Assembly (NCBI GenBank): GCA_964558675.1
Contig: CAZLEY010000002.1
Coordinates: 9,359-73,358 of the forward strand
Source of the DNA: an uncultured Dehalococcoidaceae bacterium
Lineage (GTDB): Bacteria; Chloroflexota; Dehalococcoidia; Dehalococcoidales; RBG-16-60-22
Direction: 5' to 3'
Length of the DNA: 64,000 bases
Numbering within the stretch: position 1 is the stretch's first letter; each line of letters starts with the position of its first letter. The notes under the pieces are model-generated. The model was not told where the DNA came from and made no database searches. It saw only the letters and a list, made by a program, of their open reading frames with translations. The position numbers and the translations under genes were made by a program. This document shows, one piece after another, positions 9,386 through 28,145 of this stretch.

Positions 9386-9435
9386 AACCAGTCTGGCTGT
9401 GGGAAAGACCGGGGAAAGCGCAGGAGACATACCAT

Positions 9436-11393: not shown

Positions 11394-11460
11394 TATGCCT
11401 GGATGTGAAAACACCAAACCAGCGCACGGTCATAAAATATAGCCAACGTTTCTGTGCCTA

Positions 11461-11490
11461 TTGATAATACCTTACGGGGTAGGGTATAAT
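11461..11490 (+). promoter_or_regulatory. Candidate promoter of metVF
   Basis: TTGATA at 11461-11466, an 18-nt spacer, then TATAAT at 11485-11490. Confidence 0.4.
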
Positions 11491-11593
11491 ATTTATGGTT
11501 TACTTCATGCAATACCTATTTAGAGCTGACGCCATATTCCAGCGCTGGTCAACGTCTTATGTCAGCAAATTATGAAATCAGGGGGGTGTATCT

Positions 11594-12313: not shown

Positions 12314-12348
12314 AGCGGGTGGACTTTTAAGAAGGAGCATAATAAAAG

Positions 12349-13254: not shown

Positions 13255-13269
13255 CCTTAAAGCAGGGTA

Positions 13270-13659
13270 ATGTATAAGATTCTGATAATCGATGACGACG
13301 CTGACTTCATTGCCGTAACGAAGATGGTACTTGAGTCCAGGTCTGACTACCAGGTGCTTACCGCAGATAATGGTGTTTTTGGCCTGCCAATCGCCAAAGC
13401 CGAAAAACCTGACCTTATTATCCTGGACGTTATCATGCCCTTTGAGGATGGGTTCACAACGTCCAGACAGTTCAAGGCTGACCCGGAACTGAAAAAAATC
13501 CCGATAATAATACTTACCAGCTTCTCGCAGAGGATGGGTGAGACTGATGTCTCCGTCGCTCAGGGCATGGACCTCGAGGCTGAAGACTATGTTGAAAAAC
13601 CTGTCAGCCCCCAGCAACTCCTTGACAGGGTGGATAGGCTGCTCCAAGCAGAAGGATAA
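13270..13659 (+). CDS. Stand-alone response-regulator receiver domain (CheY-like)
   Basis: ILIIDDD...PDLIILDVIMP...IPIIILTS. 129 aa with no output domain. Confidence 0.85.
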   Translation: MYKILIIDDDADFIAVTKMVLESRSDYQVLTADNGVFGLPIAKAEKPDLIILDVIMPFEDGFTTSRQFKADPELKKIPIIILTSFSQRMGETDVSVAQGMDLEAEDYVEKPVSPQQLLDRVDRLLQAEG

Positions 13660-13730
13660 CTATAATATTATAGGTGGGTGGGAAGGAGAACAACAACGCC
13701 TTAATATCTGGACCGAGCAGGGTAAGCTTT

Positions 13731-14426
13731 ATGAAGGTGATTGGGCTGATCGGGGGAATGAGCTGGAATTCAACTCTGGAATACTACCGCCTTATCAACG
13801 AACTGGTGGCTGACAGACTGGGTGGCCTGCATTCAGCTCGTATAGTGCTGTATAGTCTCGACTTTGAAGAGATAGAGCGTGCTCAACGGGAGGCAAATTG
13901 GGGCGAGGCTGCAGACACTCTTGTTGCGGCTGGTATAGCCTTGAAGCAGGCGGGCGCCGATTTTATCCTGATATGCACCAACACCATGCACAAAGTTGCC
14001 GATGTGGTATCTGAAAGAGCCGATTTACTGTTGCTTCATATCGTTGATGTGGTCGGTAATGACATTAAAAAGCTGGGTTTACATAAGGTAGGATTGCTCG
14101 GAACAAGGTTTGTCATGGAAGAGGAATTCTATCGAGAAAGGCTCGAAAAATCCTTTGGCATTGAGGTTCTAACGCCGCTCAAAGAAGAAAGGCCCGTGAT
14201 TGATATGATAATATATAAAGAACTGTGCCAGGGAAGAATAGAGGATACTTCGCGTCAGACCTGCATTGAAATGATTGATGGTCTGACAGGGCGTGGAGCC
14301 GAGGGCGTAATCCTAGGGTGTACCGAACTGCCACTGCTTATAAACTCCGGTGATGTACCGGTTCGCCTGTTCGATACAACCAGACTGCATGCTGAGGCTG
14401 CAGTAAGACTTGCGTTGGAAGAATGA
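13731..14426 (+). CDS. Aspartate/glutamate racemase family protein
   Basis: MKVIGLIGGMSWNSTLEYYRLINE...ILICTNTMH...ILGCTELPLL. The start is moved to the internal ATG at 13731, which matches the family N-terminus. Confidence 0.8.
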   Translation: MKVIGLIGGMSWNSTLEYYRLINELVADRLGGLHSARIVLYSLDFEEIERAQREANWGEAADTLVAAGIALKQAGADFILICTNTMHKVADVVSERADLLLLHIVDVVGNDIKKLGLHKVGLLGTRFVMEEEFYRERLEKSFGIEVLTPLKEERPVIDMIIYKELCQGRIEDTSRQTCIEMIDGLTGRGAEGVILGCTELPLLINSGDVPVRLFDTTRLHAEAAVRLALEE

Positions 14427-15064
14427 AAATTACGGTTGTCTACGATAATCGCACGGTCAAAGCAGGACTGAGAACCGGCTGGGGATTTTCGTCTCTTATA
14501 GAGACTGACGACGCACCACCGCTTCTCTTCGATACCGGCGCTGATGGCCCTACTCTACTTTACAACATGAAACAGCTTGGCATTGACCCTGATAGTATAG
14601 AGGTAATCGTTATCTCCCACCGTCATAGCGACCATACCGGTGGCCTGTCCGACATACTGGAGGCAAACGGGCACGCTGTGATTTATCTCCCGGCTTCCGT
14701 CGGGGTAAGGCTGCCGGGAAGAACGGTAATCTCGGTCAGCCAATCTGTTCGCATCTCAGATACCGTATTTTCTACTGGTGAGCTAAATAACACTGAACAG
14801 TCGCTGGCTGTAAAAACAGGTAAAGGTATACTGGTGGTCACAGGCTGCTCCCACCCTGGAGTCGGAGCAATCCTTGATGCTGCTTCTCAACATGGCAGCG
14901 TTTACGGCATAATCGGTGGGTTCCACGGCTTTCGCGAATTCAATCGGCTGGAAGGCCTGTCCCTGGTATGCCCCTGTCACTGCACTCAACACACGTCTGA
15001 GATACAGCAGCTGTTCCCTGACCAGTATATAGCCTGCGGGGCAGGTCTTGAGATGGAGCTATAA
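14423..15064 (+). CDS. MBL-fold metallo-hydrolase
   Basis: Has the HRHSDHTGG metal-binding motif. Its start overlaps the racemase stop in an ATGA arrangement. Confidence 0.75.
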   Translation: MKITVVYDNRTVKAGLRTGWGFSSLIETDDAPPLLFDTGADGPTLLYNMKQLGIDPDSIEVIVISHRHSDHTGGLSDILEANGHAVIYLPASVGVRLPGRTVISVSQSVRISDTVFSTGELNNTEQSLAVKTGKGILVVTGCSHPGVGAILDAASQHGSVYGIIGGFHGFREFNRLEGLSLVCPCHCTQHTSEIQQLFPDQYIACGAGLEMEL

Positions 15065-15075
15065 AAAGGAATTAA

Positions 15076-15288
15076 ATGGCGAAGGAATCCAGTTCATTCG
15101 GGCATAGCGTCGAGCGCCGTCGGGAAATACTGTACGGCACACCGGGAATAGTGATTTACCGTGATGGCCGGCCGGTTCTCTGGATACCGGATGAATTCGG
15201 CAAACTTACTAAAGAGCTTTCGTACAAGGACCTTGAGGCACTCCAGAAGGAGCTGAAGAAATATCTGAAGTCAGAGACTTCGGATTAA
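15076..15288 (+). CDS. Hypothetical protein
   Basis: 70-aa ORF lying 11 nt after the MBL gene. No recognisable motif. Confidence 0.4.
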   Translation: MAKESSSFGHSVERRREILYGTPGIVIYRDGRPVLWIPDEFGKLTKELSYKDLEALQKELKKYLKSETSD

Positions 15289-15377
15289 GATACTGGAGAT
15301 ATTAGCCAGTTACCCTCTAATACTGATTTTATATCCGGGGGACTCGTATTCTCCTTTCCTCACTTCAGGGCAGAGGG

Positions 15378-15406
15378 TTGACAATAACAGGGCAGAGAAG
15401 TATAAT
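15378..15406 (+). promoter_or_regulatory. Consensus sigma-70-type promoter of the cofactor island
   Basis: TTGACA at 15378-15383, a 17-nt spacer, then TATAAT at 15401-15406. Confidence 0.6.
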
Positions 15407-15422
15407 GTAAGTGGGCATATGA

Positions 15423-15457
15423 CCATAATAGTAAATCATTTATATATTAAATTATGG
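15423..15457. promoter_or_regulatory. Candidate metalloregulator operator in the leader of the island
   Basis: Inverted repeat CCATAAT (15423-15429) / ATTATGG (15451-15457) encloses the near-palindrome TAAATCATTTA (15432-15442). The region resembles AT-rich Fur-type boxes. Confidence 0.35.
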
Positions 15458-15489
15458 ACATAGAACATAAATTGCAAGGATAATGAGTC

Positions 15490-15990
15490 ATGGGAAGACA
15501 ACCACGTTGGCGGCGGGTAGGCAGTATACCCGAGGTAACCTATTTCAAGCCTGCGGGCATACCTCTGGCTAATATTCAGGAGGTGTGCCTGTCCATTGAT
15601 GAAGCTGAGGCGGTTCGACTTAAGGACATAGAGGGGCTTGAGCAGGATGAGTGTGCCCGAAAAATGAACGTATCACGCTCTACTTTTGCCCGGATACTGC
15701 TCTCGGCGCGTCAGAAGATGGCTGATGCCCTGCTCAATGGAAAGGCGATAAGGATTGAAGGCGGTAATTATGAGATGGCGGTACGGCATTTCCGCTGTAG
15801 GAACGGTCACGAGTGGGAGGTACCTTTTGAGAAAATGATAGAGCAACCGCCGGAGCTCTGCCCTACCTGCAATACACCCGAAATCATGTCATTGTGGCCC
15901 TGGAGACCCGGCTTACGGGGTGGCGGCAGACGGCTCAGGGGAAGACACAGAATTGGTGAAGAAGCTCAGGCGGGCAGATTAACCAGATGA
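15490..15990 (+). CDS. DUF134 (UPF0251) HTH protein with a C-terminal zinc-ribbon and an Arg/Gly-rich tail
   Basis: Starts [25 protein letters not shown], with [37 protein letters not shown]. This is followed by CRNGH...CPTCNTP and [16 protein letters not shown]. Confidence 0.7.
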
Positions 15991-16066
15991 CCTCTATCGG
16001 TGGTGGTCTATTCTATCGGGGCTGATGGTAGGCTATCTGAGGATGTGAATCTCGTTAAGGTTTAAT

Positions 16067-16792
16067 ATGATGAAAATTATTGAAGATTTACTGTCTACTT
16101 TGCATTACGATACCCAGGTAAGGGATATAAGGCAGGGTCTTTTCCATACCGCCGTGGTGACTAGAAACTGCGGGCTGGCGGCAACGCTTCCACGTGACGC
16201 CCTCCGTCAGGAGCCGCCATTGATGAAGGAGCCGGGGTTCCTGTTGGAGAAAAGTGCCCTGGAACTGGCCCGGATGTCTTACTCGGAAAGCATTCCAGAA
16301 GCGGCCATTGGTATGGCGACCATTAATTCGCTTCTTGATATTGACGAAGGTAGTTGCGCTAATCTTAATGCGCGGGACCTCATTTCTGAAAAGGGAAGGG
16401 GCAGGAGAGTAGCTATCGTAGGTCACTTCCCCTTTATACCCGGGCTCCGTGATGTGGTTAAGGAGCTCTGGGTAATTGAGAAGAATCCAGAGGAAGGCGA
16501 CTTGACCGAAGCCGAAGGGGCGACCTATATCCCCCAGGCTGATGTCGTGGGTATCACCGGCACCGCCTTTACCAACCATACCATCGACCAGCTTATGGAG
16601 TTATGCAATCCTGATGCTTACGTGGTGATACTGGGTGATACCGCTCCACTATCTCCCATTCTCTTTGATTATGGTATTGATGCTGTATCAGGCACAAAAG
16701 TGACCGATACAGACCTTGCCTTGCGCTGTGTCAGTCAGGGGGCTACCTACCGGCAGATTAAAGGAATTTCACAGCTCACCATGAAGAACTAG
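16067..16792 (+). CDS. DUF364 / putative heavy-metal chelation domain protein
   Basis: 241 aa with a Rossmann-like C-terminal half (RVAIVGHFPFIP...ADVVGITGTAFTNHT). Confidence 0.55.
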   Translation: MMKIIEDLLSTLHYDTQVRDIRQGLFHTAVVTRNCGLAATLPRDALRQEPPLMKEPGFLLEKSALELARMSYSESIPEAAIGMATINSLLDIDEGSCANLNARDLISEKGRGRRVAIVGHFPFIPGLRDVVKELWVIEKNPEEGDLTEAEGATYIPQADVVGITGTAFTNHTIDQLMELCNPDAYVVILGDTAPLSPILFDYGIDAVSGTKVTDTDLALRCVSQGATYRQIKGISQLTMKN

Positions 16793-16825
16793 ATAAAGAA
16801 ATGGACTACCATATAGGTACATGCA

Positions 16826-17281
16826 ATGAAAGCGACGACTGAAATAGACGGAAAATTCACCGGGCGAAACACCCAGCAACGCCAGATAATCCTGAAAATA
16901 ATCAAGCAGGCTAACGGACATATTGACGCTGACGGAATTTACTGGCAGGCCCGGCGGAAATCACCCAGCATCAGCCTGTCCACGGTATATCGCAGTTTGC
17001 AGCTTTTCAAGGAATTGCGGCTGGTCGAGGAGCATCAGCTTGACGGCATGCGGCGGTACTATGAAAGCGCGCCGTGTTACAAACATCACCATATGGTATG
17101 TCTCGGGTGCGGACGAATCTTTGAGTTTACCTGCCCGTCAACGGAGAGGATTAAGTCCAGGCTCGGCCGGGAAGAGGGCTTTAAAGTGACCGGTGTAGAT
17201 GTGCGTCTGGTAGGCTACTGCCCGGAGTGTCAGCGGCATTTTCTGGACACAGTGGATGATAAAAAAATAGAGAAAGGATAA
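16826..17281 (+). CDS. Fur family regulator, second paralogue embedded in the island
   Basis: NTQQRQIILKII...HHHMVCLGCGRIFEF...GYCPECQ. Confidence 0.8.
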   Translation: MKATTEIDGKFTGRNTQQRQIILKIIKQANGHIDADGIYWQARRKSPSISLSTVYRSLQLFKELRLVEEHQLDGMRRYYESAPCYKHHHMVCLGCGRIFEFTCPSTERIKSRLGREEGFKVTGVDVRLVGYCPECQRHFLDTVDDKKIEKG

Positions 17282-17294
17282 GAGGAGGTAAAAA

Positions 17295-17636
17295 ATGACT
17301 TATGGATTTGGACGAGGTAGAGGCTCTGGCCGTGGTTTCGGTGGCGGCATGGGCTTTGGCTTCCACGGAATGTCTCCTCCCTGGCCTTATGTAGGCCGTG
17401 GTAGAGGGGGACTACCCAGGTGCGGCTACTTCATGGGCGGCGCTGGTGCGCCTCAAGCATGGCCGTATCCGCAGGCTCCTTATTACGGAGCGCCACCTGC
17501 TTACGAATATGGTCCTACTGCCGGTCCGATGACCGGAGAGGAAGAGCTTAACTATCTGAAAGACCAGGCAGAGGCGATAAAGGGTGAGCTCGAGCAAATC
17601 GATTCTAGGATGCGCGACCTTGAAGCTCAGGAGTAA
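17295..17636 (+). CDS. DUF5320-like protein: Gly/Arg/Met-rich N-terminus, Pro/Tyr-rich middle and C-terminal coiled coil
   Basis: GRGRGSGRGFGGGMGFGF...EEELNYLKDQAEAIKGELEQIDSRMRDLEAQE. Confidence 0.65.
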   Translation: MTYGFGRGRGSGRGFGGGMGFGFHGMSPPWPYVGRGRGGLPRCGYFMGGAGAPQAWPYPQAPYYGAPPAYEYGPTAGPMTGEEELNYLKDQAEAIKGELEQIDSRMRDLEAQE

Positions 17637-17674
17637 CACGCACACAGGAATTGTTAAGGTAAAGGAGGTGTATT

Positions 17675-17962
17675 ATGCCGGGATTTGATGGTACCGGTCC
17701 TATGGGGATGGGGCCAATGACAGGCGGTGGCCGGGGCTTTTGCAGTCCCCGGGGAATGGTAGGTGGGAGACGGTGGTACGGTCACCCCCGCTGGACACCT
17801 TATGCCTATCCTTACTACAGTCCATCTGTTTTCAGCCCGTTTTCTCCACGGATGACCCGTGAGCAGGAAGTGGAGTTCTTAAAAAACGAGGCTCAGGCTA
17901 TGAGAGATGAGCTTAAGGAACTGGAAGCCAGGATAGGGCAACTGTCCACGGAAAAGGAATAA
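17675..17962 (+). CDS. DUF5320 family protein
   Basis: Starts MPGFDGTGPMGMGPMTGGGRGFC, the canonical DUF5320 opening. Has the C-terminal coiled coil REQEVEFLKNEAQAMRDELKELEARIGQL. Confidence 0.7.
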   Translation: MPGFDGTGPMGMGPMTGGGRGFCSPRGMVGGRRWYGHPRWTPYAYPYYSPSVFSPFSPRMTREQEVEFLKNEAQAMRDELKELEARIGQLSTEKE

Positions 17963-17971
17963 GGAGGGAAC

Positions 17972-18568
17972 ATGAAAATTGCCATTTCAGCTCAAGGCTC
18001 CACGCTGGATGCTGAGGTAGACCCAAGGTTCGGGCGCTGCCAGAATTTCATTATAGCCGACCCGGAGACGATGGAGTTTGAGGCTGTTGGTAACTCGAGC
18101 GCCATGGCATCCGGCGGCGCCGGCATCGCTACGGCTCAGATGATTGTCGATAAAGGCGTCGAGGCGGTTCTGACCGGTAACTGTGGTCCCAATGCCTACC
18201 AGGTGCTATCCTCGGCGCCTGTCCAGATAATAACCGGTGTATCCGGTAAAATAAAGGATGTTATCGAGGACTACCGTTCGGGTAAATTCAAGGCCAGTGG
18301 CCAGGCTAATGTGGCCGACCATTTTGGTATGGGAGGTGGCTCCGGTACGGGAATGGGTCGCGGCATGGGGAGAGGTATGGGACGCGGTATGGGGAGAGGC
18401 ATGGGAATGGGGGGAGGTATGGGAATGGGGGGAGGTATGACCCCGCCCATGAACGTGGCACCGCAAAGTCCGGAGCAGGAACTCGAGGCGCTCAAGGAAC
18501 AGTCACAGGCGCTGGCGCAGCAGATGGAAGATATCCAGCGGCGGATTGAAGGGCTGGAAAAGAAATAA
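17972..18568 (+). CDS. NifB/NifX-family cofactor-binding domain fused to a (GMGR)n/(GMGMGGG)n repeat and a DUF5320-like coiled coil
   Basis: N-terminal MKIAISAQGSTLDAEVDPRFGRCQNFII, then GMGRGMGRGMGRGMGRGMGMGGGMGMGGGM, then PEQELEALKEQSQALAQQMEDIQRRIEGLEKK. Confidence 0.75.
   Translation: MKIAISAQGSTLDAEVDPRFGRCQNFIIADPETMEFEAVGNSSAMASGGAGIATAQMIVDKGVEAVLTGNCGPNAYQVLSSAPVQIITGVSGKIKDVIEDYRSGKFKASGQANVADHFGMGGGSGTGMGRGMGRGMGRGMGRGMGMGGGMGMGGGMTPPMNVAPQSPEQELEALKEQSQALAQQMEDIQRRIEGLEKK
18350..18439 (+). repeat. In-frame tandem repeat: four 12-nt GMGR units, then a perfect 18-nt duplication
   Basis: ATGGGAATGGGGGGAGGT occurs at 18401-18418 and again at 18419-18436. A 12-nt periodicity (GGN ATG GGN CGN/AGA) runs over 18350-18397. 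Confidence 0.85.
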
Positions 18569-18688
18569 GAAGTCAATTAGGATATAAAGCTCTGCCACAG
18601 GATATAGTAGCGTTTCCTGATAGATAAACGCGCTGTGGTAAACAAGTTATAATAGAATAATTATTAAATAAAAGGGAGGTAACATAGC

Positions 18689-18871
18689 TTGCCTGTCTAT
18701 GAATACGAGTGTCAGAAATGCGGAGAGCGTTTCGAGTTGCGCCGGAGCATGAGCGATACTGACCAGGACATAAAATGTCTCAAGTGTGGGGCAGAGAATC
18801 CCCGCCGCATCTTCTCAACTTTTGCCACCGCCTCCGGCGGTGGCTCCTGTGCCCCGGGAGCATCTACCTGA
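18689..18871 (+). CDS. FmdB-family zinc-ribbon protein (CxxC_CxxC_SSSS)
   Basis: MPVYEYECQKCGERFE...CLKCGAE. TTG start preceded by GGGAGG. Confidence 0.75.
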   Translation: MPVYEYECQKCGERFELRRSMSDTDQDIKCLKCGAENPRRIFSTFATASGGGSCAPGAST

Positions 18872-18941
18872 AGCATAAGTCGGTGAGGCAGTTAGCCTTA
18901 AATCCATTGATTTGTAAAGAGGAAGGAAAAGGAGGTGTGTA

Positions 18942-19280
18942 GTGAGGTATGCCGTACCGGTGAGCGGCGGAAGGGTTTCGCCGCACTTCGGTCATTGTGA
19001 ACACTTTGCCATGATAGATGTTGATGAAGAGAGCAAGGAAATAATCAGCAAAGAGCTTGTCCCGTCACCGGGGCACCAGCCGGGGCTGCTCCCTGAGTGG
19101 CTTGCAGAGCAGGGAGTGGCCTTTGTGATTGCCGGCGGGATGGGCTCCCGGGCGCAGAGCCTTTTTCAGCAAAATCGCATAGGAGTCATCCTTGGTGCCC
19201 TGGAAAACGACCCGGAAGCAACGGTCCTGAATTATCTACAAGGAAGACTGGCTACGGGAGAAAATATTTGTGACCATTAA
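18942..19280 (+). CDS. NifB/NifX-family (dinitrogenase FeMo-cofactor-binding-like) protein
   Basis: MRYAVPVSGGRVSPHFGHCEHFAMIDVD...AFVIAGGMGSRA. GTG start with an AAGGAGGTG ribosome-binding site. Confidence 0.75.
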   Translation: MRYAVPVSGGRVSPHFGHCEHFAMIDVDEESKEIISKELVPSPGHQPGLLPEWLAEQGVAFVIAGGMGSRAQSLFQQNRIGVILGALENDPEATVLNYLQGRLATGENICDH

Positions 19281-19302
19281 GCGATGACATTGGAGGAAAA
19301 CT

Positions 19303-20307
19303 ATGGTAACCGAAGAGCAAGTAAAGGAGAGCCTGGAAACGGTACTGGTGCCCGCCGTCAAACGCAGCATCATCGGGATGAACCTGGTACGTGAGGTCAG
19401 CACTACAGATAAGACGGTAAAAGTCACCCTGGCATCAACCGGGCTGATTCCGGGCGCGCAGGACTGGATTAAAAACAAGGCTGAGGAAGCTATCAAGAAG
19501 CTGCCTGAGGTCAGTGAAGTAAACGTCGAATATACTGATATCAAGGCAAAAGACCTGAACGAAATCGACCATATTATCGCTGTAATGAGCGGCAAGGGAG
19601 GGGTGGGCAAGTCTCTGGTGTCAAGCCTGCTTGCCATTGCGCTGAAGCGCCAGGGCTACGACGTAGGCATTATGGACGCCGATATTACCGGTCCGAGCAT
19701 TCCCAAGATGTTCGGCCTTAACCTCCCGCCGAGCGGCAACGAAAGCGGACTGCTGCCGGTACTCTCAAAATCGGGCGTTGAGGTCATGTCTATTAACCTT
19801 CTTCTTCCCAGCGAGGATGATGCCGTAATATGGCGAGGTCCTCTGATTGGAAATACTATCAAGCAGTTCGGTGAAGACGTGCTCTGGGGAAAGCTGGACT
19901 ATCTGATTATAGACCTGCCTCCTGGTACCGCCGATGCCCCTCTTACGGTAATGCAGACCTTCCCCATTTCGGGGGTAATAGTTGTCTTCACTCCTCAAGA
20001 CCTGGTTGAGATGATTGTCAGGAAGGCCGTGAATATGGCCCGAAAAATGGAGAAACGCATTCTCGGCGTCGTCGAGAATATGAGCTACTTCTATGTACCG
20101 GAAATAGACAAGAAGATAGAAATCTTCGGCAGAAGCCGCGGTGAAGAGATGGCCAGTTCCGCTCAGGCCCCGCTGCTGGGGCAGTTGCCCATAGACCCAG
20201 AGCTGGCCAGGCTCTGCGATGAGGGGAATATTGAGCGCTACAATGGCGAAATTGTAGCCAGTCTGGGTGAATCTCTCGTTAAGGCATTGTCAGCCGAGGT
20301 CAAATAA
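19303..20307 (+). CDS. Mrp/NBP35/ApbC-type Fe-S cluster carrier ATPase with an N-terminal DUF59 domain
   Basis: Deviant Walker A motif SGKGGVGKS, the motif IIDLPPGTAD, and a DUF59-like N-terminus. Confidence 0.85.
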   Translation: MVTEEQVKESLETVLVPAVKRSIIGMNLVREVSTTDKTVKVTLASTGLIPGAQDWIKNKAEEAIKKLPEVSEVNVEYTDIKAKDLNEIDHIIAVMSGKGGVGKSLVSSLLAIALKRQGYDVGIMDADITGPSIPKMFGLNLPPSGNESGLLPVLSKSGVEVMSINLLLPSEDDAVIWRGPLIGNTIKQFGEDVLWGKLDYLIIDLPPGTADAPLTVMQTFPISGVIVVFTPQDLVEMIVRKAVNMARKMEKRILGVVENMSYFYVPEIDKKIEIFGRSRGEEMASSAQAPLLGQLPIDPELARLCDEGNIERYNGEIVASLGESLVKALSAEVK

Positions 20308-20322
20308 TGAGGAGGCGAAAGG

Positions 20323-20772
20323 GTGTCCAGTGATTTTGATGAACTCCAGAAACTGGTCATGGCAGATGCCCGCAAGGTCTACTCTGACACGGTCATTGAC
20401 CACGCTATGAACCCGCGGAACCTGGGTGATATACCGGATGCTGACGGCTTCGCCAGGGTGACCGGACCCTGTGGCGATACTATGGAAGTATGGCTGAAGG
20501 TAAAGAATGATAATATCTACCAGGCTTCTTTCTTCACCGATGGCTGCGGTACAAGTATTGCCTCGGGAAGCATGGTTACCGAAATGGCCAGAGGGAAGGG
20601 TGTAACCGAAGCCCAGAAAATAACTCAGCGCTATGTACTGGATGCCCTGGGAGGGTTACCCGAGGAAAGCGAACACTGTGCTCTTCTGGCCACAAACACC
20701 CTTAAGGCAGCCATAAAAGACTACATGGCCATGAAGCGAGAGCCGTGGAAGAAGGCATACCGAACCTATTAA
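20323..20772 (+). CDS. NifU/IscU-like Fe-S cluster scaffold protein
   Basis: CGDTMEVWLKV...DGCGTSIASGSM...EHCALLATNTLKAAI. The three scaffold cysteines are present. Confidence 0.8.
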   Translation: MSSDFDELQKLVMADARKVYSDTVIDHAMNPRNLGDIPDADGFARVTGPCGDTMEVWLKVKNDNIYQASFFTDGCGTSIASGSMVTEMARGKGVTEAQKITQRYVLDALGGLPEESEHCALLATNTLKAAIKDYMAMKREPWKKAYRTY

Positions 20773-20805
20773 GGTGGCGGGAGTAATGCATAGAGGGAAA
20801 GATTC

Positions 20806-21774
20806 GTGATTAGCTCTATTGCCTACGGTCCCGTCCCATCCCGAAGATTAGGCCGCAGTCTGGGTATAAACAATATTCCTCCCAAGACATGCAGTTATTC
20901 CTGTGTCTACTGTCAGCTCGGGCGCACTACAGATATGCACATAGAGCGTGGCGCTTTCTATAAGCCATTAGAAATAGCCCGGAGTGTAACGGAAAAGGTC
21001 AGATGTGCTGGAGAAAAAGATGAACCTGTTGACTACATCACCTTTGTGTCTGATGGCGAGCCGACTCTGGATATCAATCTGGGCGAAGAAATTACGTTTC
21101 TCAGCAAGTCGGGTATCAAAATCGCAGTTATTACCAATGCTTCACTTATCTGGCGTGAGGACGTTATAAGGGATTTACAAAAAGCTGATTGGGTATCAAT
21201 TAAGGTAGATGCAATTACCCCGGGAGTATGGGACAGGATTAATCGACCGCATGGAGCCCTCAGGCTTGATGTGGTGCTTGAAGGCATAATCAGTTTTGCC
21301 CGGTCATTCGTGGGTATTCTTACTACAGAAACCATGCTTATCAAGGGGATAAACGATGATATTGGTGAAATCGGGCAAATAGCGGATTTTCTGGTAAAAT
21401 TGGAGCCGGCTACGGCCTATCTGGCCATACCGACAAGGCCGCCGGCGGAACGTGTAGAGTCTGCCACCGAGCAGAATATCAATATGGCATATCAAATTTT
21501 CACAGAGAGATTGAACAATGTGGAATACCTTATCGGCTACGAGGGAAATGATTTTGCCAGCACGGGCAACGTACAGGAGGATATCCTCAATATTACGGCA
21601 GTTCATCCTATGAGGGAGGAGGCGGTAGCCGAGTTCTTAAGTAGAAGCGGCGCCAGTTGGGAGGTTGTCCAGAATATGGTAGAGAAACGCATTCTTGTCG
21701 AATTGGAATACCTGGGAAAGAAATTTTTCATGCGGAAGCTGCACGGGTATCACGCGAGTCTGCCGCATCCATGA
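20806..21774 (+). CDS. Radical SAM protein (NifB/MoaA-related, COG0731-like)
   Basis: GPVPSRRLGRSLGINNIPPKTCSYSCVYCQLG contains the CxxxCxxC motif. Confidence 0.75.
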   Translation: MISSIAYGPVPSRRLGRSLGINNIPPKTCSYSCVYCQLGRTTDMHIERGAFYKPLEIARSVTEKVRCAGEKDEPVDYITFVSDGEPTLDINLGEEITFLSKSGIKIAVITNASLIWREDVIRDLQKADWVSIKVDAITPGVWDRINRPHGALRLDVVLEGIISFARSFVGILTTETMLIKGINDDIGEIGQIADFLVKLEPATAYLAIPTRPPAERVESATEQNINMAYQIFTERLNNVEYLIGYEGNDFASTGNVQEDILNITAVHPMREEAVAEFLSRSGASWEVVQNMVEKRILVELEYLGKKFFMRKLHGYHASLPHP

Positions 21775-21784
21775 GTATCCCCCT

Positions 21785-21898
21785 GCAAATATCGGGGTGA
21801 AGTGGTTAACGTTGCATGGCTTCAATGCAACCAAAGCTGAGCTTTACCTTGAGGGTTACTGCCCGGGGTGTGAAGGGAATATGAACTATAGAGAGTAA
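21785..21898 (+). pseudogene. Possible remnant of a Fur-family C-terminus
   Basis: Translation HGFNATKAELYLEGYCPGCEG aligns with the C-termini of both Fur paralogues (DFEIVNIEFRATGYCPKC and GFKVTGVDVRLVGYCPEC). No N-terminal DNA-binding part is present. Confidence 0.3.
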
Positions 21899-21899
21899 A

Positions 21900-22064
21900 A
21901 TGAGTAAAGAAAAAGTAAGCGAGATTGAGGAGAAAATAGCCGACCTCAAAGCCCGATGGCCGGCTCATTCCGTGCCGCTGTCAATGTGGCAGCAACTGGA
22001 GGAACTGGAGGACGAACTGGAGGAAGCGAAGAAGGAGGAGACTAGCGGGAGTGAAACAGCCTGA
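21900..22064 (+). CDS. Small acidic helical protein, 54 aa (below the ORF-track cutoff)
   Basis: MSKEKVSEIEEKIADLKARWPAHSVPLSMWQQLEELEDELEEAKKEETSGSETA. The ATG at 21900 follows the preceding stop directly. Confidence 0.4.
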   Translation: MSKEKVSEIEEKIADLKARWPAHSVPLSMWQQLEELEDELEEAKKEETSGSETA

Positions 22065-22090
22065 GAAGGGAGAAGGTTGTGCCAAGAAAG

Positions 22091-22291
22091 ATGGCGTTAG
22101 TTGATTTCAATAAATGCCATCCCGATAAATACGACAGTGGTATTTGCGCCGCAGCACTGGCATGTTCTCATGGTCTGCTGAAGCAAGAAGCTCCCTAAGA
22201 AATACCTATGACAGACCCGTTTCTTTGCCGGGGTTGTGAGGACTGCGTCCGCGCCTGCCCGTTCAAGGCTATCCAGATAGTAGGAATGTAG
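22091..22291 (+). pseudogene. Ferredoxin-like Cys-rich protein interrupted by an in-frame TAA
   Basis: Reads MALVDFNKCHPDKYDSGICAAALACSHGLLKQEAP, then TAA (22196-22198), then EIPMTDPFLCRGCEDCVRACPFKAIQIVGM. Both halves are in one frame. Confidence 0.6.
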
Positions 22292-22310
22292 AACAGGAAA
22301 AGAGAGGAAG

Positions 22311-23089
22311 ATGAAGATATCCGTTTGTGGAAAAGGAGGAAGTGGTAAAAGCACCATAGTCACTCTTCTGGCGAATGAAGCCTTGAAAAGAGGCTATCGG
22401 GTGCTGGTGGTGGATTCCGATGAATCCAATTCGGGGCTTTTCCGCATGCTCGGCTTTGACCGCCTGCCCGTGCCTTTGATGGAACTCGTGGGGGGAAAGA
22501 GAGGACTGAAACAAAAGCTGGGGCAGCCGAACGTTCTTAGCGAAACGAATATACAGACAGCAAACATCCCTGATGGATATTTGCTCCAGAAAAATGGGCT
22601 CAAGCTGGTGGCCATAGGTAAAATCATGCAGTCGCTGGAAGGCTGCGCCTGCCCTATGGGCGTATTAAGCCGTGAGTTCTTAAAAAACTCGCTCTGGCAG
22701 ACGATGAGATGGCCATTGTGGACATGGAGGCGGGAGTGGAACATTTCGGCAGAGGTGTGGAGACCAGCATCGACAGCGTTCTTATCGTTGTCGAGCCTCC
22801 CCTGGAATCGGTAAACGTGGGTCAGAAGATTCACGAGCTGGCTTCAGGAATCGGCATTAAGGATATCTGGGCTGTCCTGAACAAGGTGCCAACAAGAGAG
22901 ATAGCTGCTAGAATGGAAATGGAATTGCAGGAGCGTCACATCGAGGTGGTCGGGTGTATCTACTTTGACGCCGATATCTTCACGTCAAGTATGGAAGGTA
23001 GAATCCCTGTAGATGGGATAGCGGTTCGAGAAGCTAAAGAGGTCATAGATAATATCTTTTCAAGGGCAGGTATGCCGACACCAGGATGA
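22311..23089 (+). pseudogene. cooC: CooC/AcsF-type Ni-insertion ATPase with a frameshift in an A6 run
   Basis: Starts MKISVCGKGGSGKST and contains CACPMG. The frame is lost after REFLK at the A6 run (22682-22687). The sequence KKLALADDEMAIVDMEAGVEHFGRG continues in the next frame as far as 23089. Confidence 0.75.
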
Positions 23090-23124
23090 TGTAACTGCTC
23101 TTGTGGGACGAACGGAGGTGTAAA

Positions 23125-23328
23125 GTGTGCCTGGCCAAGGCTTATTTAAATAAACAGGATAATGAACCGATGCTTCAGGATATCGCTTATGTGCGGCTGC
23201 ATGAAGACCGTGTGGAACTGGAGACATTGTTTGGTGAGGAGCAGGTTGTACACGGCAGGTTGGTCGAAATAAATTTCGCTACTTCGAAAATACTGCTCCA
23301 TAGTGACCGCCAGGCTGCCCAAGCTTAG
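23125..23328 (+). CDS. cooT: CooT-family small nickel-binding protein
   Basis: GTG-TGC start gives MCLAKAYLNKQDNEPMLQDIAYVRLHEDRVELETLFGEE. Cys2 is conserved and a GGAGGTG ribosome-binding site lies at 23114-23120. Confidence 0.65.
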   Translation: MCLAKAYLNKQDNEPMLQDIAYVRLHEDRVELETLFGEEQVVHGRLVEINFATSKILLHSDRQAAQA

Positions 23329-23341
23329 TTGAGGAGAAGGT

Positions 23342-24052
23342 ATGTCACCGAGCGACCACGGAACTCCAAAGTCAATGGCAGGAATGGAACAAAGCGGCAG
23401 TCATTTTTCTCCCTTTGATGATCTGGCTCTGGAATATGATGCCTGGTTTGATAAAGATGGAAGCCTTATCTTTTTCATTGAGGTGCAGGCGTTCCAGGTA
23501 CTGTTGTCATCCCTGCCGAAGCCCTGGCTCGAAATCGGGGTTGGCAGCGGCCGTTTCGCCCAGGCTTTGGGCATCGAAACCGGGGTCGACCCTTCTATTA
23601 AGCTTATCGAGATGGCACGAAAGAGAGGAATAAACGCCTTTATAGGTCGAGGAGAACAGGAGCCGTTTGATGAAGAATCATTCGGTACGGTCTTCTTGAT
23701 TGTCACCCTGTGTTTCCTTGATTCGCCTTTGGATGTTCTCAAGGAAGCCAACCGCATCCTGGTGCCCGGCGGCAAGATAGTACTGGGGTTGGTTTTACAA
23801 GAGAGTCCGTGGGGTCAGTTTTATCGGCGCAAGAAGGCGGAAGGGCACCGCTTCTATAGACACGCCAAATTCTATAGGTATGATGAGGTGTTTAGTCTGC
23901 TGGTCAAAGCGGGTTTTGTGACCGAGAAGGTTGTTTCGACACTTTTTCAGAAGTCGGATAAGGTGTATCATATGGAAGAGCCCAGGGAGGGCTATTACCC
24001 GGATGCTGGCTTTACGATAATCACGGGGGCAAAACGTGGCAGTGAAATGTAA
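23342..24052 (+). CDS. Class I SAM-dependent methyltransferase
   Basis: Motif I WLEIGVGSGRFA and post-I/II motifs (FDEESFGTVFLI, LVPGGKIVL). Confidence 0.75.
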   Translation: MSPSDHGTPKSMAGMEQSGSHFSPFDDLALEYDAWFDKDGSLIFFIEVQAFQVLLSSLPKPWLEIGVGSGRFAQALGIETGVDPSIKLIEMARKRGINAFIGRGEQEPFDEESFGTVFLIVTLCFLDSPLDVLKEANRILVPGGKIVLGLVLQESPWGQFYRRKKAEGHRFYRHAKFYRYDEVFSLLVKAGFVTEKVVSTLFQKSDKVYHMEEPREGYYPDAGFTIITGAKRGSEM

Positions 24053-24067
24053 TAGGAAGGTGAGATT

Positions 24068-24361
24068 TTGAAGGACAACGTAATCTTGCGGGTAAGGAAA
24101 GACCTATGTCTCGGCTGCGGGCTGTGTGCCGAGAGTTGCCCTCAGCAGGCTATCTCCCTGCAGTCGGGTCAAGTAAAGATATACCACAACAGATGCAACC
24201 ATTGCGGCCTCTGCCTTGATGTCTGCCCCCAGGGGGCAATTGTTGAGGTGACACCCGTGTCACAGCATGACCTGCAGGACACTGTTGCCGCACTGAAGGG
24301 CCGGGCGGGAGACATCATCGCTAGAATTGAGAGGCTAACCGAGCAGCAACGGCAAAGTTAA
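24068..24361 (+). CDS. 2x[4Fe-4S] ferredoxin with a C-terminal helical tail
   Basis: CLGCGLCAESCP and CNHCGLCLDVCP, followed by LQDTVAALKGRAGDIIARIERLTEQQRQS. Confidence 0.8.
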   Translation: MKDNVILRVRKDLCLGCGLCAESCPQQAISLQSGQVKIYHNRCNHCGLCLDVCPQGAIVEVTPVSQHDLQDTVAALKGRAGDIIARIERLTEQQRQS

Positions 24362-24372
24362 TAGGAGAAATC

Positions 24373-24531
24373 ATGAAGACCTATCTTGATTGTTTGCCGT
24401 GTCTGATTGATGTCTTTCATTCTTTCCATTTCCCGCAGGTAGATGATAGAATAAGATGGCTGGGTGAAATTTGCAGAGTCATGAAGCCCCCAGTAAAGCG
24501 TGATATGTTCCTACTCTTACCAATAAACTAA
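24373..24531 (+). pseudogene. 52-codon fragment beginning like a DUF89/ARMT1-type protein
   Basis: MKTYLDCLPCLIDV matches the conserved DUF89 N-terminus (MxTYLDCxPC). The rest is unrelated and the ORF stops early. A good AGGAG ribosome-binding site is present. Confidence 0.35.
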
Positions 24532-24542
24532 AAGGAGGTAGT

Positions 24543-24884
24543 ATGAGCAAGATAATAGAGATTACCGATCAAAATTTTGAGGAGGAAGTCCTGAAATCAA
24601 ACCTGCCCACAGAGGTAGATTTCTGGGCGCCCTGGTGTGGCCCGTGCCACATGGTTATACCGATATACGAAAAACTCTCCGAGGAGTATGAAGGCAGATT
24701 TAAATTCTGCATGATTAATGTGGATGAAAACCAGCAGACAGCAGTAAAATATCAGATTATGAGCATACCAATGCAGATGTACTTTGTTAACGGTGAGAAG
24801 GTTGACGAAATCCTCGGCGCCGTCCCGGAGCATATTATCCGGACAATGGTAGACAGCATCCTCCAGAGTCCGCCGACAGATTAA
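24543..24884 (+). CDS. trxA: Thioredoxin
   Basis: WAPWCGPCHM active site. 113 aa. Confidence 0.9.
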   Translation: MSKIIEITDQNFEEEVLKSNLPTEVDFWAPWCGPCHMVIPIYEKLSEEYEGRFKFCMINVDENQQTAVKYQIMSIPMQMYFVNGEKVDEILGAVPEHIIRTMVDSILQSPPTD

Positions 24885-25085
24885 AAAGGTAGGCTCAAAG
24901 CGCTCTTGACCTTATGTGTTGAGCAGGACAGGCGGGATAGTGAGAACCCGGGAAGTGAACCGAGAGTGCCCATAATGTAGAGAGCGAATCGATTTACAAT
25001 CAACTTATAGTCAACAAGAGAAGAATCGGGGAAAGCCAACAAGAGGCCACCCCAGCGTTCACAAATTACAAGGAGATAGATAGAC

Positions 25086-26402
25086 ATGAAAGTATGCATT
25101 ATCGGAGCCGGTGCTGGCGGCAGGGGCGCCTCGGGACGGATTCGACAGCTGGACAAACAAGCCCAGATAGACATCTTCAGTACCCAGAGTGAGATTGGTT
25201 ATGCGCCCTGTGAACCACCCTTTGTACTTAAAGGGGTTTCCCGCTGGGACGATATATTTTATCCCGGCAAATTTTTCGAGGAGAGAAATATAACTGTTCA
25301 TTTGAGCACGGAAGTCACCGATATTCTCAGGAAGGGAAAACGCATTATCGCTGGGGGTAAAAGCTATCCTTACGATAAGCTAATTCTAAGTCCCGGGGCT
25401 GTCCCCTCCGTTCCTCCAATCCCCGGGCTGGATGGCAAAAATGAGTTTACTCTCAGCACGAATATTGCCGATGGTAAAGCCCTGGATAAAATCATCCCGA
25501 AATACACCAGTGCTGCCGTCATAGGTGCGGGAGCTATCGGGGTAGAGCTAACCCTGGCTCTTATTGCCCGAGGCTACAAGGAAGTCTACCTCATGGACAT
25601 GCTGGAGAATATCCTGCCCGCTGGCCTGGATAAGGATATGACGGGCAAGGTTGAGCAGACAATGCGAAAGAATGGCGTGGAGCTGATTACGTCTGCCAGC
25701 ATCAGCAGCGTAAAAACCGAGTCTGGAAGGAAACGTATCATTCTTCCTGACCGAGAACTGGAAGTAGATCTTATCTTCCTGACCACCGGCGCCAGACCTA
25801 ACGTCGAGCTAGCCCGAAAAGCAGGAATTGAAATAGGAGAGACAGGGGGAATACTGGTGAACCAGTATTTACAGACAAGTGACCCCGATATCTATGCCGC
25901 TGGTGATTGCATGGAGAACTGGGATATGATGACCGGCGCAAAGACCCGCCGCCTGATGGTTACCTCCGCCGGCAGGACCGGCAATGTGGCCGGTGAGAAT
26001 TTGGTTTCAGGAAATTCTTTGCCCTATGAAGGCACCCTCATGACCTTCACTATTGAAATCTTTGGCTATCAAATAGGTGCCGCCGGTTTTACGGAGAGGG
26101 TTGCCCGAGAGAAAGGGCTGGATATCATATGCGCCACAAGTACCTTCCCCAGCACGCGACCAAAATATGGTGGTAAGCTCGTTCACTCCAAGCTTATCGC
26201 TGAACGCCGGACCGGCACCTTGGTTGGGGCACAGATTATCTCGGAGGAGATGGTAAGAGGTCTGGTCAGTGAAATGGCTCTCGCCATAGCCGAGAAAGTG
26301 CCGTTGCACAGACTGGTCCTGCTTGAGTCCCCTTATTCGCCGGCGGTAGGAATGGATCCGATAGGGGTGGGGGTAAGAGAGCTAGCGGATAAGCTCGGCT
26401 GA
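25086..26402 (+). CDS. CoA-disulfide reductase / NADH oxidase-family flavoprotein, paralogue 1
   Basis: IIGAGAGG, single Cys in YAPCEPP, second dinucleotide fold VIGAGAIGVE, and AAGDCMEN. Confidence 0.7.
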   Translation: MKVCIIGAGAGGRGASGRIRQLDKQAQIDIFSTQSEIGYAPCEPPFVLKGVSRWDDIFYPGKFFEERNITVHLSTEVTDILRKGKRIIAGGKSYPYDKLILSPGAVPSVPPIPGLDGKNEFTLSTNIADGKALDKIIPKYTSAAVIGAGAIGVELTLALIARGYKEVYLMDMLENILPAGLDKDMTGKVEQTMRKNGVELITSASISSVKTESGRKRIILPDRELEVDLIFLTTGARPNVELARKAGIEIGETGGILVNQYLQTSDPDIYAAGDCMENWDMMTGAKTRRLMVTSAGRTGNVAGENLVSGNSLPYEGTLMTFTIEIFGYQIGAAGFTERVAREKGLDIICATSTFPSTRPKYGGKLVHSKLIAERRTGTLVGAQIISEEMVRGLVSEMALAIAEKVPLHRLVLLESPYSPAVGMDPIGVGVRELADKLG

Positions 26403-26492
26403 TGCCTGGTGCTCCTCTACTCAATGATATGGAGATAAGGGCTCAAGAGGCACGATAGGACATGGAAGAGAGATTAATGACAGGAGGCCAAA

Positions 26493-27818: not shown

Positions 27819-27845
27819 GGAAATAGCTGAAGGGGTATAATAAGC

Positions 27846-28145
27846 ATGGCAAAATTCAGCGAGATAGAAGAGGCGCGAAAGTTACTGGGACTCGGTGAGA
27901 CAGCTACGCTTAAGGAGATAAAGAGTGCCTACCGGCGTATGGCGAAGCAGCATCATCCTGATAAGGTTGTCGACAAAGACCAGGCCGAAAGCGCAACTAT
28001 GAAAAGATTGAACTGGGCTTATAAACTCCTTCTGGACTACTGTGCCGGCTATAAGTATAGCTTCAGGAAGGATGATGTAGCCCGTACCTATCCGTATGAC
28101 GAATATATGGAAACTTTCAAAGAAAAGTGGTTTAACAGCATCTAG
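27846..28145 (+). CDS. Small J-domain protein
   Basis: YRRMAKQHHPDK carries the HPD motif. 99 aa. Confidence 0.75.
   Translation: MAKFSEIEEARKLLGLGETATLKEIKSAYRRMAKQHHPDKVVDKDQAESATMKRLNWAYKLLLDYCAGYKYSFRKDDVARTYPYDEYMETFKEKWFNSI

Follow-up and report, generated by a model that had tools for sequence, protein, structure and literature searches.

We analysed a stretch of 64,000 nucleotides (hereafter the window) of contig CAZLEY010000002.1 from an uncultured Dehalococcoidaceae bacterium and, within it, an island of co-directional genes at 15490-24361 built around a gene for a NifX-like protein with a repetitive tail (NifX::tail). We propose with moderate confidence that the island is a reduced, Dehalococcoidia-type version of a strict-anaerobe gene cluster related to ORP/MrpORP and to IssA, which would hold and deliver Fe-S (metal-sulfide) material under iron control. 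The proposal draws on sequence and analogy, and the statements on homology and synteny given below deserve much higher confidence than the functional claim. How strict anaerobes build their very large complements of Fe-S proteins is poorly understood, notably where sulfide may replace cysteine as the sulfur source, and the respiration of Dehalococcoidia depends on Fe-S enzymes. The ORP complex, whose function is unsettled, and IssA, which has been characterised only in Pyrococcus, have been isolated leads in this respect; the present locus joins both in one conserved operon and adds to them, as further conserved parts, DUF5320, DUF134 with its operator candidate, DUF364, a pair formed by a radical S-adenosylmethionine (SAM) enzyme and a methyltransferase, and a subfamily of Mrp proteins devoid of the CXXC motif. 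A preliminary description of this DNA had named the island as its best candidate for an undescribed system; with a core homologous to Desulfovibrio ORP/MrpORP and to IssA-type proteins, it is not undescribed in kind.

Gene content of the island

The open reading frame (ORF) listing and Pfam scans gave 17-18 ORFs for the island, all on the + strand. Together with the promoter region they are as follows.

15378-15406 (+): sigma-70-type promoter TTGACA-17-TATAAT, 12/12 consensus match
15411-15426 (no strand): 16-bp palindrome, operator candidate, GTGGGCATATGACCAT (consensus ATGRRCATATGYYCAT), immediately after the -10 box
15490-15990 (+): DUF134 helix-turn-helix (HTH) regulator, PF02001, 87 bits, plus a sigma-70 region-4-like HTH
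16067-16792 (+): DUF4213+DUF364 enzyme (enolase-N-like plus Rossmann fold), by Pfam and by PDB 3L5O at 8.9e-19
16826-17281 (+): Fur-family regulator, the second Fur of the window, PF01475, 107.6 bits
17295-17636 (+): DUF5320-like protein a, Pfam 25.8 bits, slightly below the cut-off of 27
17675-17962 (+): DUF5320 protein b, PF17253, 70.8 bits, sequence MPGFDGTGPMGMGPMTGGGRGFC... plus a C-terminal helix
17972-18568 (+): NifX::tail, 198 aa, ORP/MTH1175-type PF02579 domain, (GMGR)n and a DUF5320-type coiled-coil helix, by Pfam
18689-18871 (+): FmdB-type zinc ribbon, PF09723 55.6 bits, TIGR02605 68 bits, present in 23/45 related loci
18942-19280 (+): NifX-like (Di-Nase) protein, PF02579; MrpORP model NF041136 positions 265-365, 120.9 bits
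19303-20307 (+): DUF59 (FeS_assembly_P) plus Mrp/NBP35-type P-loop ATPase; ParA/NUBPL 298 bits, MrpORP positions 1-233, 317.1 bits
20323-20772 (+): IscU/NifU-type scaffold, NifU_N PF01592, 115 bits
20806-21774 (+): radical SAM enzyme, COG0731-like, PF04055
21900-22064 (+): acidic ORF, 54 aa, within the inserted cassette
22091-22291 (+): RLI-type ferredoxin-like ORF with an in-frame TAA at 22196-22198
22311-23089 (+): cooC, frame broken in the A6 run 22682-22687
23101-23328 (+): cooT, PF10133
23342-24052 (+): class I SAM methyltransferase, Pfam Methyltransf_11
24068-24361 (+): 2x[4Fe-4S] ferredoxin with a C-terminal helix, by Pfam, conserved in the closest relative

The preliminary description had counted about 20 same-strand genes behind a consensus promoter; the strand, the gene identities and the 12/12 promoter stand, and the number comes down to 17-18. 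Its statement that the parts come from families handling metal clusters is borne out. It had also reported the lack of a cysteine desulfurase, nitrogenase or CODH gene, and indeed no match to Aminotran_5, nitrogenase or Prismane/CODH was obtained among the window ORFs scanned, the window encoding elsewhere [NiFe] hydrogenase, Hdr, FDH and NuoF-like genes. Gaps between the genes of the island are mostly 9-40 bp, with larger ones of 120, 125 and 181 bp at 18568, 21774 and 24361, and no convincing + strand terminator was found inside the island. The genes lie where they had been placed, within 15378-24361, and only the limits need revision, as the co-directional syntenic block is wider, running roughly over 8872-28145 from Fur-FeoAB to a J-domain gene.

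Synteny of the cluster in bacteria and archaea

We compared 80 loci of a one-genome-per-species collection, anchored on NifX::tail, and three further long metagenome or metagenome-assembled-genome loci with close NifX::tail homologues, calling homologues by phmmer with the window proteins against all ORFs of the loci. Forty-nine of the 80 belong to Chloroflexota and 31 to other groups, namely Acidobacteriota, Planctomycetes, Omnitrophota, Clostridia, Synergistota, Aerophobetes, Thermodesulfobacteriota, Methanosarcinales, Methanocellales, Bathyarchaeia and Thermoproteota. Exact-protein look-ups also gave contigs of the same species from JGI sediment metagenomes, and the genomes matching best were metagenome-assembled ones of Dehalococcoidales/Dehalococcoidia. 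The same order recurs in the three metagenome loci and the 80 species loci, including those of distant phyla and archaea (components in brackets are optional): DUF134, (DUF364), (Fur), one to three DUF5320-like genes, NifX::tail, (FmdB ribbon) and (a Gly/Arg-rich Cys6 mini-protein), then MinD-ferredoxin ATPases A and B, (ribbon), (AF_2379), NifX-like, Mrp, NifU, (radical SAM) and (methyltransferase). The core order is thus kept across the loci and the genes are not scattered, which shows the island to be a real unit and answers in its favour the gene-order comparison that the preliminary description had put forward.

Since each query was a single sequence, the gene counts in these loci are minimum values. 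With this reading, among the 45 loci having at least 6 kb downstream the MinD-ferredoxin ATPases A and B were the most frequent components (38/45 and 37/45), followed by the Gly/Arg-rich Cys6 mini-protein (31/45), Mrp (30/45), the FmdB ribbon (23/45), NifU (22/45), NifX-like (19/45), the methyltransferase (12/45) and the radical SAM enzyme (11/45), while CooC-like proteins and CooT occurred in 2/45 and 1/45. On the upstream side, where 59 loci extend for at least 2.5 kb, DUF5320-like genes were found in 45, DUF134 in 33, DUF364 in 16 and Fur in nine. The closest relative, locus L091 (~80% nucleotide identity), reads Fur-FeoA-FeoB-DUF134-DUF364-DUF5320-NifX::tail-ribbon-Mrp-NifU-radical SAM-methyltransferase-ferredoxin, then two flavoproteins and a J-domain protein. 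In the one-genome-per-species collection as a whole, the cluster was present in at least 279 tblastn-confirmed stretches from many bacterial phyla and from archaea; PF02579 and FeoB rank among the families most indicative of anaerobes.

The mini-protein of ~75 aa is a feature of the relatives (L006:10870-11100 and 57 other loci) and not of the window, and stands nearly always directly before the MinD-ferredoxin ATPases. It has a Gly/Arg-rich N-terminus (MPRGDGTGPP...) and a Cys6 knuckle (CxCPxCG...PCY...CPxCG), and has no Pfam or NCBIfam match.

A conserved promoter with a candidate operator

Alignment of DUF134 upstream regions revealed that the -35 and -10 boxes are kept in the relatives L006, L091, L008 and L009, and with this conservation the promoter is more than a chance match to the consensus. 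The palindrome ATGRRCATATGYYCAT was found with up to three mismatches in 40 of the 44 DUF134 upstream regions, that of the window included, as against ~3% of randomly drawn 320-nt stretches. In nearly all DUF134 loci it is preceded, at a distance of ~33 nt, by a TTGAC[AT] box. The palindrome is mostly missing from loci that have no DUF134, and the copy at 15411-15426 is the sole match within the window. From this pattern the palindrome is probably an operator bound by the DUF134 regulator. The DUF134 protein itself has a zinc-ribbon-like C-terminus with a C-H-C-C zinc knuckle (C-x3-H...C-x2-C) made up of C103, H107, C124 and C127, each kept in 40-45 of 48 homologues, and ends in an Arg/Gly-rich tail, the tails of its relatives being Gly/Arg/Trp-rich. 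These tails (e.g. GWGRRGWGRRHRGGR) resemble the tails of proteins that are presumably under DUF134 control. We found no literature on DUF134 in the context of this cluster.

Fur takes the place of DUF134 as lead gene in loci of Planctomycetes, Omnitrophota and Eubacteriales. Thus DUF134 and/or Fur lead the cluster behind a conserved promoter and operator candidate, in keeping with the preliminary description, which had placed the island under regulators of its own. Both Fur paralogues of the window score about equally against Fur and PerR models. A sigma-54 promoter was considered and rejected, as -24/-12 matches occur at chance rate and the one near the promoter has no GG; Pfam scans likewise revealed no gene for an enhancer-binding protein in the cluster.

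An IssA-like protein and its DUF5320 partners

The best PDB match of NifX::tail is the D. gigas ORP (2WFB), with which its residues 1-105 align at E=2.5e-17; next comes MTH1175 (1EO1). The PF02579 N-domain scores 82 bits and the tail matches DUF5320 (PF17253) at 35.4 bits. In the AlphaFold2 (AF2) model the N-domain has a predicted confidence (pLDDT) of ~90, residues 119-164 fall below 50 and a helix spans 167-197. The segment 119-164, with an isoelectric point (pI) of 12 and 44% Gly, is predicted to be disordered, and the internal part 111-160 (pI 12.0) is the only cationic one. Among 93 homologues, C23 is kept in 84, C71 in 67 and H117 in 80.

This layout recalls IssA of P. furiosus, a PF02579 domain with a disordered cationic Gly-rich tail which stores Fe/S as thioferrate, can rebuild a ferredoxin cluster in vitro and is produced solely under abundant iron and sulfide; the same work noted a mesophile clade, 'IssX', which was never studied (PMC5524996). 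We made the comparison by the published criteria and by composition. By the operational criteria of the PMC5524996 supplement (pI and a Gly-rich end), assignment of NifX::tail to either IssA or IssX was rejected; judged by its predicted architecture, it is IssA-like and not a member.

The two genes upstream of NifX::tail code for tail-only counterparts with the same terminal helix. A hidden Markov model (HMM) of the C-terminal 38 residues, drawn from 96 DUF5320-like proteins, has a consensus (PQMTREQELDFLKNQAEALKDQLERIEARIRELEKK) with a clean heptad pattern and matches exactly three consecutive genes in the window, those for DUF5320 a (3.7e-17), DUF5320 b (7.3e-16) and NifX::tail. In DUF5320 a this heptad helix is preceded by a cationic part of pI 9.8, which abounds in Gly, Arg, Pro and aromatic residues and bears one Cys. 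The simplest reading of these features is that DUF5320 a, DUF5320 b and NifX::tail co-assemble through the common helix into a multivalent cationic scaffold that would recruit ferredoxin. The helix HMM detected no DUF5320-type helix on the ferredoxin at 24068-24361 or on the acidic 54-aa ORF. Among the relatives, 2x[4Fe-4S] ferredoxins of the cluster occur with a GMGR cationic tail, a coiled-coil helix or a fusion to DUF5320 (L058:12778-13065, L046:3359, L064:3650, L061:12605-12898, L076:8337-8630). The DUF5320 family as a whole has 1055 representatives of 50%-identity clusters at E<=1e-3, and we found no literature on it.

A split MrpORP next to NifU

The NCBIfam MrpORP model NF041136 matches Mrp at 317.1 bits and its NifX-like neighbour at 120.9 bits, each under the model cut-off. 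As the two parts of the model match adjacent genes, we read the pair as a split MrpORP, here in reversed order with the Di-Nase gene upstream of the ATPase gene. The Di-Nase motifs of MrpORP, CXHFGHCE, TPPPHXPGXXP and a C-terminal CDH, have been proposed to hold [3Fe-4S] (PMC6345978); the Di-Nase protein of the window (18942-19280), whose best PDB match is TM1290, has SPHFGHCE (the first Cys changed to Ser), PSPGHQPGLLP and a terminal CDH.

Mrp retains the deviant Walker A motif GKGGVGKS. The CXXC motif is absent, and C305 is the single invariant Cys, in all 36 Dehalococcoidia-type Mrp homologues; in the 20 homologues of other phyla CXXC is kept and DUF59 is absent. CXXC binds the transferable [4Fe-4S] cluster in all characterised members of the Mrp family, and with the motif missing a classical carrier role is doubtful for Mrp, so that the statement of the preliminary description that Mrp proteins carry Fe-S clusters does not transfer to this one. 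The CXXC-less protein may work with the Di-Nase protein or with NifU. As a subfamily, the CXXC-less proteins with DUF59 and a P-loop (the window and 36 related loci, e.g. L006:13210-14214) keep a single invariant Cys, in the window C305 within LCDEG, and their genes usually have a Di-Nase gene upstream and NifU downstream. The NifU of the island has its GPCGD, DGCG and EHC motifs, i.e. the Cys/Asp/His cluster ligands, intact in sequence; it scores 135 bits with TIGR03419, under the cut-off of 187.9, and equivalog models are all below their cut-offs.

Accessory enzymes and an inserted cassette

The radical SAM enzyme has C29, C33 and C36 (CX3CX2C) as its sole invariant cysteines among 26 homologues; homologues are named 'wyosine synthetase (radical SAM superfamily)' in JGI, and its fold gives generic matches, with NifB on top (TM 0.51) and TYW1 and viperin at ~0.5. 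A NifB-like enzyme was rejected, with no auxiliary-cluster (K1/K2) ligands conserved, no NifB NCBIfam match and a generic fold. The preliminary description had read the island as a cofactor assembly and delivery line; nothing points to an exotic cofactor, the radical SAM enzyme having the CX3CX2C cysteines only. In L091 the methyltransferase gene adjoins the radical SAM gene or overlaps with it, and in L006 and several other loci it lies close by; from this arrangement its product is the predicted partner of the radical SAM enzyme. The sole characterised member of DUF364 is a SAM-derived methyl-azetidine-carboxylate synthase, the family being otherwise linked to metal transporters.

In L091 and L006 the methyltransferase gene directly follows the radical SAM gene; in the window a stretch at their junction, 21743-23406 (+), could not be matched by blastn in either locus. 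The 1.6-kb insert holds the acidic ORF, the ferredoxin-like ORF, cooC, cooT and both lesions. By comparison with these relatives, the four genes, which had been listed as members of the island, are a lineage-specific insertion and not part of the conserved system, and the inserted nickel-chaperone cassette looks inactivated. The stop in the ferredoxin-like gene and the cooC frameshift were both seen again, at 22196-22198 and 22682-22687. The TAA aligns with Tyr in L029, the sole close homologue, which points to a nonsense change; selenocysteine was rejected on the same ground and on the codon being TAA. As sequenced, cooC falls into two ORFs, one of 167 and one of 126 aa, and one A added to the A6 run gives a CooC of 259 aa with P-loop and GCACPMG. 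It may be noted that 22681-22688 reads TTA AAA AAC, in which 0-frame A_AAA_AAC is a canonical -1 slippery heptamer, and a -1 slip would give the 259-aa CooC. Leaky expression of CooC is conceivable in this way, although mutation or sequencing error is likelier than slippage since CooC homologues are single-frame. Exact-protein look-ups and metagenome DNA scans found no independent assembly covering the TAA and the frameshift, the contigs of the same species stopping short.

Flanking genes

On either side of the island, the following genes belong to the wider syntenic block.

8872-11393 (+): Fur-FeoA-FeoB ferrous iron uptake, called and Pfam-annotated on contig L001 of the same species
24543-28145 (+): thioredoxin, two CoA-disulfide/persulfide-reductase-like flavoproteins and a 99-aa J-domain protein, by Pfam and NCBIfam, syntenic in L091 and L006

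Fur-FeoAB directly adjoins DUF134 in L091. The best PDB match of the flavoproteins is the P. horikoshii CoADR (3KD9/4FX9, 6e-62), with Npsr and a CoA-persulfide reductase next. The preliminary description had called the island self-contained; there is no sulfur donor within 15378-24361, and plausible partners lie outside it, namely FeoAB, thioredoxin, the two flavoproteins and the J-domain protein.

Between feoB and DUF134 (11394-15489) the window is 4.1 kb longer than L091, with DUF5981, MTHFR, a response regulator, an Asp/Glu racemase, a metallo-beta-lactamase (MBL)-fold protein and an ORF of 70 aa; in L006 and L022, too, DUF134 is preceded by the racemase and MBL-fold pair. Between the ferredoxin and thioredoxin genes, 24373-24531 encodes a 52-aa ORF (MKTYLDCLPCLIDV...) which looks like the N-terminal end of a longer protein and is perhaps a further remnant. 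Further away, a third flavoprotein of the CoADR/NADH-oxidase type (32869-34545, - strand, 558 aa, Pyr_redox_2 plus dimerisation domain) lies between the Hdr and [NiFe] hydrogenase genes. An in-frame TGA at 35969-35971 (-) stands between the HdrA-like ORFs 34592-35953 and 35969-36553, which probably form a selenocysteine-containing HdrA and not a split gene. The 235-aa ORF at 40477-41184 (-) has only the N-terminal domain of aldehyde:ferredoxin oxidoreductase (AFOR_N, 250 bits), with no ORF for a C-terminal domain after it on that strand, and is probably a gene remnant or an assembly problem. A protein of 1048 aa (48874-52020) with nine CARDB repeats and DUF11 is presumably at the cell surface and is unrelated to the island.

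Proposed role and alternative explanations

On our proposal of a cluster that holds and delivers Fe-S material, transcription would start from the conserved sigma-70 promoter, with DUF134 as the putative binder of the palindrome and a Fur paralogue adding iron control. NifX::tail and the two DUF5320 proteins would co-assemble through their helix, and the resulting cationic scaffold, by analogy with IssA and ORP, would bind anionic Fe-S species. IscU/NifU, the Di-Nase protein and the CXXC-less Mrp, to judge from their homologues, would build clusters and pass them to acceptors such as the cluster ferredoxin, the part of the ATPase being uncertain. From the syntenic flanks, FeoAB would supply Fe2+, thioredoxin and the two CoADR-like enzymes reductant and possibly sulfide, and the J-domain protein may give chaperone help. 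DUF364, the radical SAM enzyme and the methyltransferase would be conserved accessories, and the acidic ORF, the ferredoxin-like gene, cooC and cooT an unrelated inserted cassette. The link to iron is seen in the Fur paralogue inside the cluster, in Fur as lead gene in other phyla and in the adjacent Fur-FeoAB.

Several observations weigh against this proposal. The compared loci were picked by NifX::tail, and 49/80 of them are from Chloroflexota, so that the frequencies are conditional and phylogenetically correlated. The 64-kb window has no ORF for a MinD-ferredoxin ATPase, though most relatives have both; L091 likewise is without either. No Fur box was found near the promoter (15290-15490), the best matches having 5-6 mismatches. 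Where ENMSxxxCPxCG is expected, Mrp has ENMSYFYVPEIDKK (YVPEID), and CXXC is gone. NifX::tail as a whole protein has a pI of 5.27 as against >=9 for IssA or >=8 for IssX (19 of 69 long homologues reach pI >= 8), and its last 40 residues, which form a coiled coil, contain a single Gly, the Gly-rich part being internal. Finally, ORP, the nearest solved relative, binds the Mo-Cu cluster [S2MoS2CuS2MoS2]3- non-covalently, and not Fe-S (PMC6345978), and the role of the ORP complex is unsettled, cell division having been proposed; later work on MrpORP points to Fe-S maturation.

The chemistry of ORP invites an explanation in which the cluster handles Mo/W (and Cu) sulfide, the ORP-like protein and its cationic Met-rich partners holding thiomolybdate or thiotungstate anions for FDH and AOR. 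Besides the ligand of this best solved relative of the N-domain, the genomic linkage of DUF364 to molybdate/tungstate transporters and its cofitness with nifH in M. maripaludis, the FDH and AOR fragment encoded in the window, and Met-rich GMG repeats that could bind Cu(I) would fit such a role. We nevertheless hold it to be unlikely: there is no mod/tup transporter and no moa/moe gene in or beside the cluster in any locus examined, the conserved neighbours are iron genes (Fur, FeoAB) and Fe-S genes (NifU, Mrp), the conserved Cys/His ligands of the family are absent from ORP, and DUF364 occurs in only 16/59 loci. That the cluster is a sequestration or stress system, buffering excess iron and sulfide or redox and sulfane stress rather than supplying Fe-S biogenesis, is unlikely too, if slightly less so. 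The restriction of IssA to abundant iron and sulfide, the syntenic thioredoxin and CoADR/persulfide-reductase-like genes, the tracking of redox potential by orp expression in Desulfovibrio and a Fur family which includes PerR-type peroxide sensors, with both paralogues scoring alike against Fur and PerR, argue for it. NifU/IscU, Mrp-like proteins and ferredoxin as core neighbours, however, fit delivery over storage alone, IssA transfers clusters to ferredoxin in vitro, and storage and supply are not mutually exclusive.

It seems very unlikely to us that there is no single system and the island is a co-directional mosaic of independent small operons held together by descent in one lineage, although loci differ in many optional components, an internal block has demonstrably been inserted, 49/80 compared loci come from a single phylum and the 120-181 bp gaps could house internal promoters. 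The preliminary description had raised the possibility that promoters or terminators divide the island; the spacing between its genes is mostly 9-40 bp, and no convincing + strand terminator was found inside. The core order is preserved in distant phyla and archaea, and domain fusions tie the parts together (NifX::DUF5320, ferredoxin::DUF5320 and, in MrpORP, Mrp::Di-Nase). A role in cell division or in positioning a cellular structure through MinD-like ATPases, as first proposed for the Desulfovibrio ORP complex, we regard as most improbable. MrpORP does localise at a cell pole (PMC6345978) and the ATPases of the relatives are of the MinD/ParA type, but the window and its closest relative keep the remaining cluster without MinD-ferredoxin ATPases, no division gene is syntenic, and the later MrpORP studies favour Fe-S maturation.

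Returning to Fe-S storage and delivery, a bolder form of the proposal can be put forward, which we hold only tentatively. A hetero-oligomeric, coiled-coil-anchored scaffold in which DUF5320 proteins and an ORP domain with its tail bring together disordered cationic tails, possibly a condensate or nanoparticle, might store an iron-sulfide polymer in mesophilic bacteria and archaea and feed cysteine desulfurase-independent Fe-S assembly from Fe2+ brought by Feo and sulfide released by the syntenic CoADR/persulfide-reductase-like enzymes, with delivery through NifU, the Di-Nase protein and the CXXC-less Mrp, and with DUF134 sensing the load by its Gly/Arg/Trp tail or zinc knuckle. If true, a fourth Fe-S supply system, of an anaerobe type, would be added to those known, and the long-unexplained ORP complex would gain a function. 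The locus thus yields testable hypotheses for a bacterial Fe-S store and delivery chain.

Comparison with known systems

The inserted cassette resembles the CooC/CooT nickel insertion system in the P-loop and CxC-type motif GCACPMG of the restored CooC and in the match of CooT to PF10133; it differs in that cooC is frameshifted, the window has no CODH and the cassette is missing from the closest relatives. With the ISC-type system of IscU/NifU and HscB the cluster shares a NifU_N protein with intact ligands and a syntenic small J-domain protein with HPD, whereas IscS/NifS, HscA and an ISC-type Fdx are lacking and the J-protein is not HscB-like by any model. Mrp agrees with Mrp/NBP35/ApbC in PF10609 (298 bits), in the Walker A motif GKGGVGKS and in a DUF59 N-domain as in bacterial ApbC/Mrp, and departs from it in that the CXXC of the bridging cluster is replaced and C305 is the single Cys.

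Compared with IssA, NifX::tail ends in an acidic coiled coil and has a Met-rich instead of a Trp-rich tail, and the function of the tail appears spread over separate DUF5320 proteins. On the other hand, it has the same IPR003731/PF02579 domain followed by a disordered cationic Gly-rich segment with few cysteines, its N-domain is near MTH1175, which was placed in the IssA clade (PMC5524996), and the N-terminal parts of the DUF5320 proteins share with the IssA tail a composition of Gly, Arg, aromatic residues and Pro and usually a single Cys.

The cluster is also close to the ORP complex and MrpORP of Desulfovibrio vulgaris and D. alaskensis (Orp3, Orp4, Orp5, Orp8, Orp9; PMC6345978, PMC8359166), even if the window has no Orp3/Orp4 homologue, MrpORP is split here with its order reversed, and the ATPase has DUF59 and no CXXC. 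The cluster has a sigma-70 promoter with DUF134/Fur where Desulfovibrio uses sigma-54/OrpR; DUF5320, DUF364, NifU, the radical SAM enzyme and its methyltransferase partner come in addition; and NifX::tail has a cationic tail, a coiled coil and conserved Cys/His, the last absent from ORP and MTH1175. Both are confined to anaerobes, and both have an ORP-type PF02579 protein and Mrp with Di-Nase. Furthermore, most relatives of the island carry two MinD-type ATPases (CbiA/ParA) with an inserted 2x[4Fe-4S] ferredoxin domain, which by architecture are like Orp3/Orp4; these twin ATPases, together with the ORP-like N-domain of NifX::tail, mark the conserved core as an ORP-type cluster.

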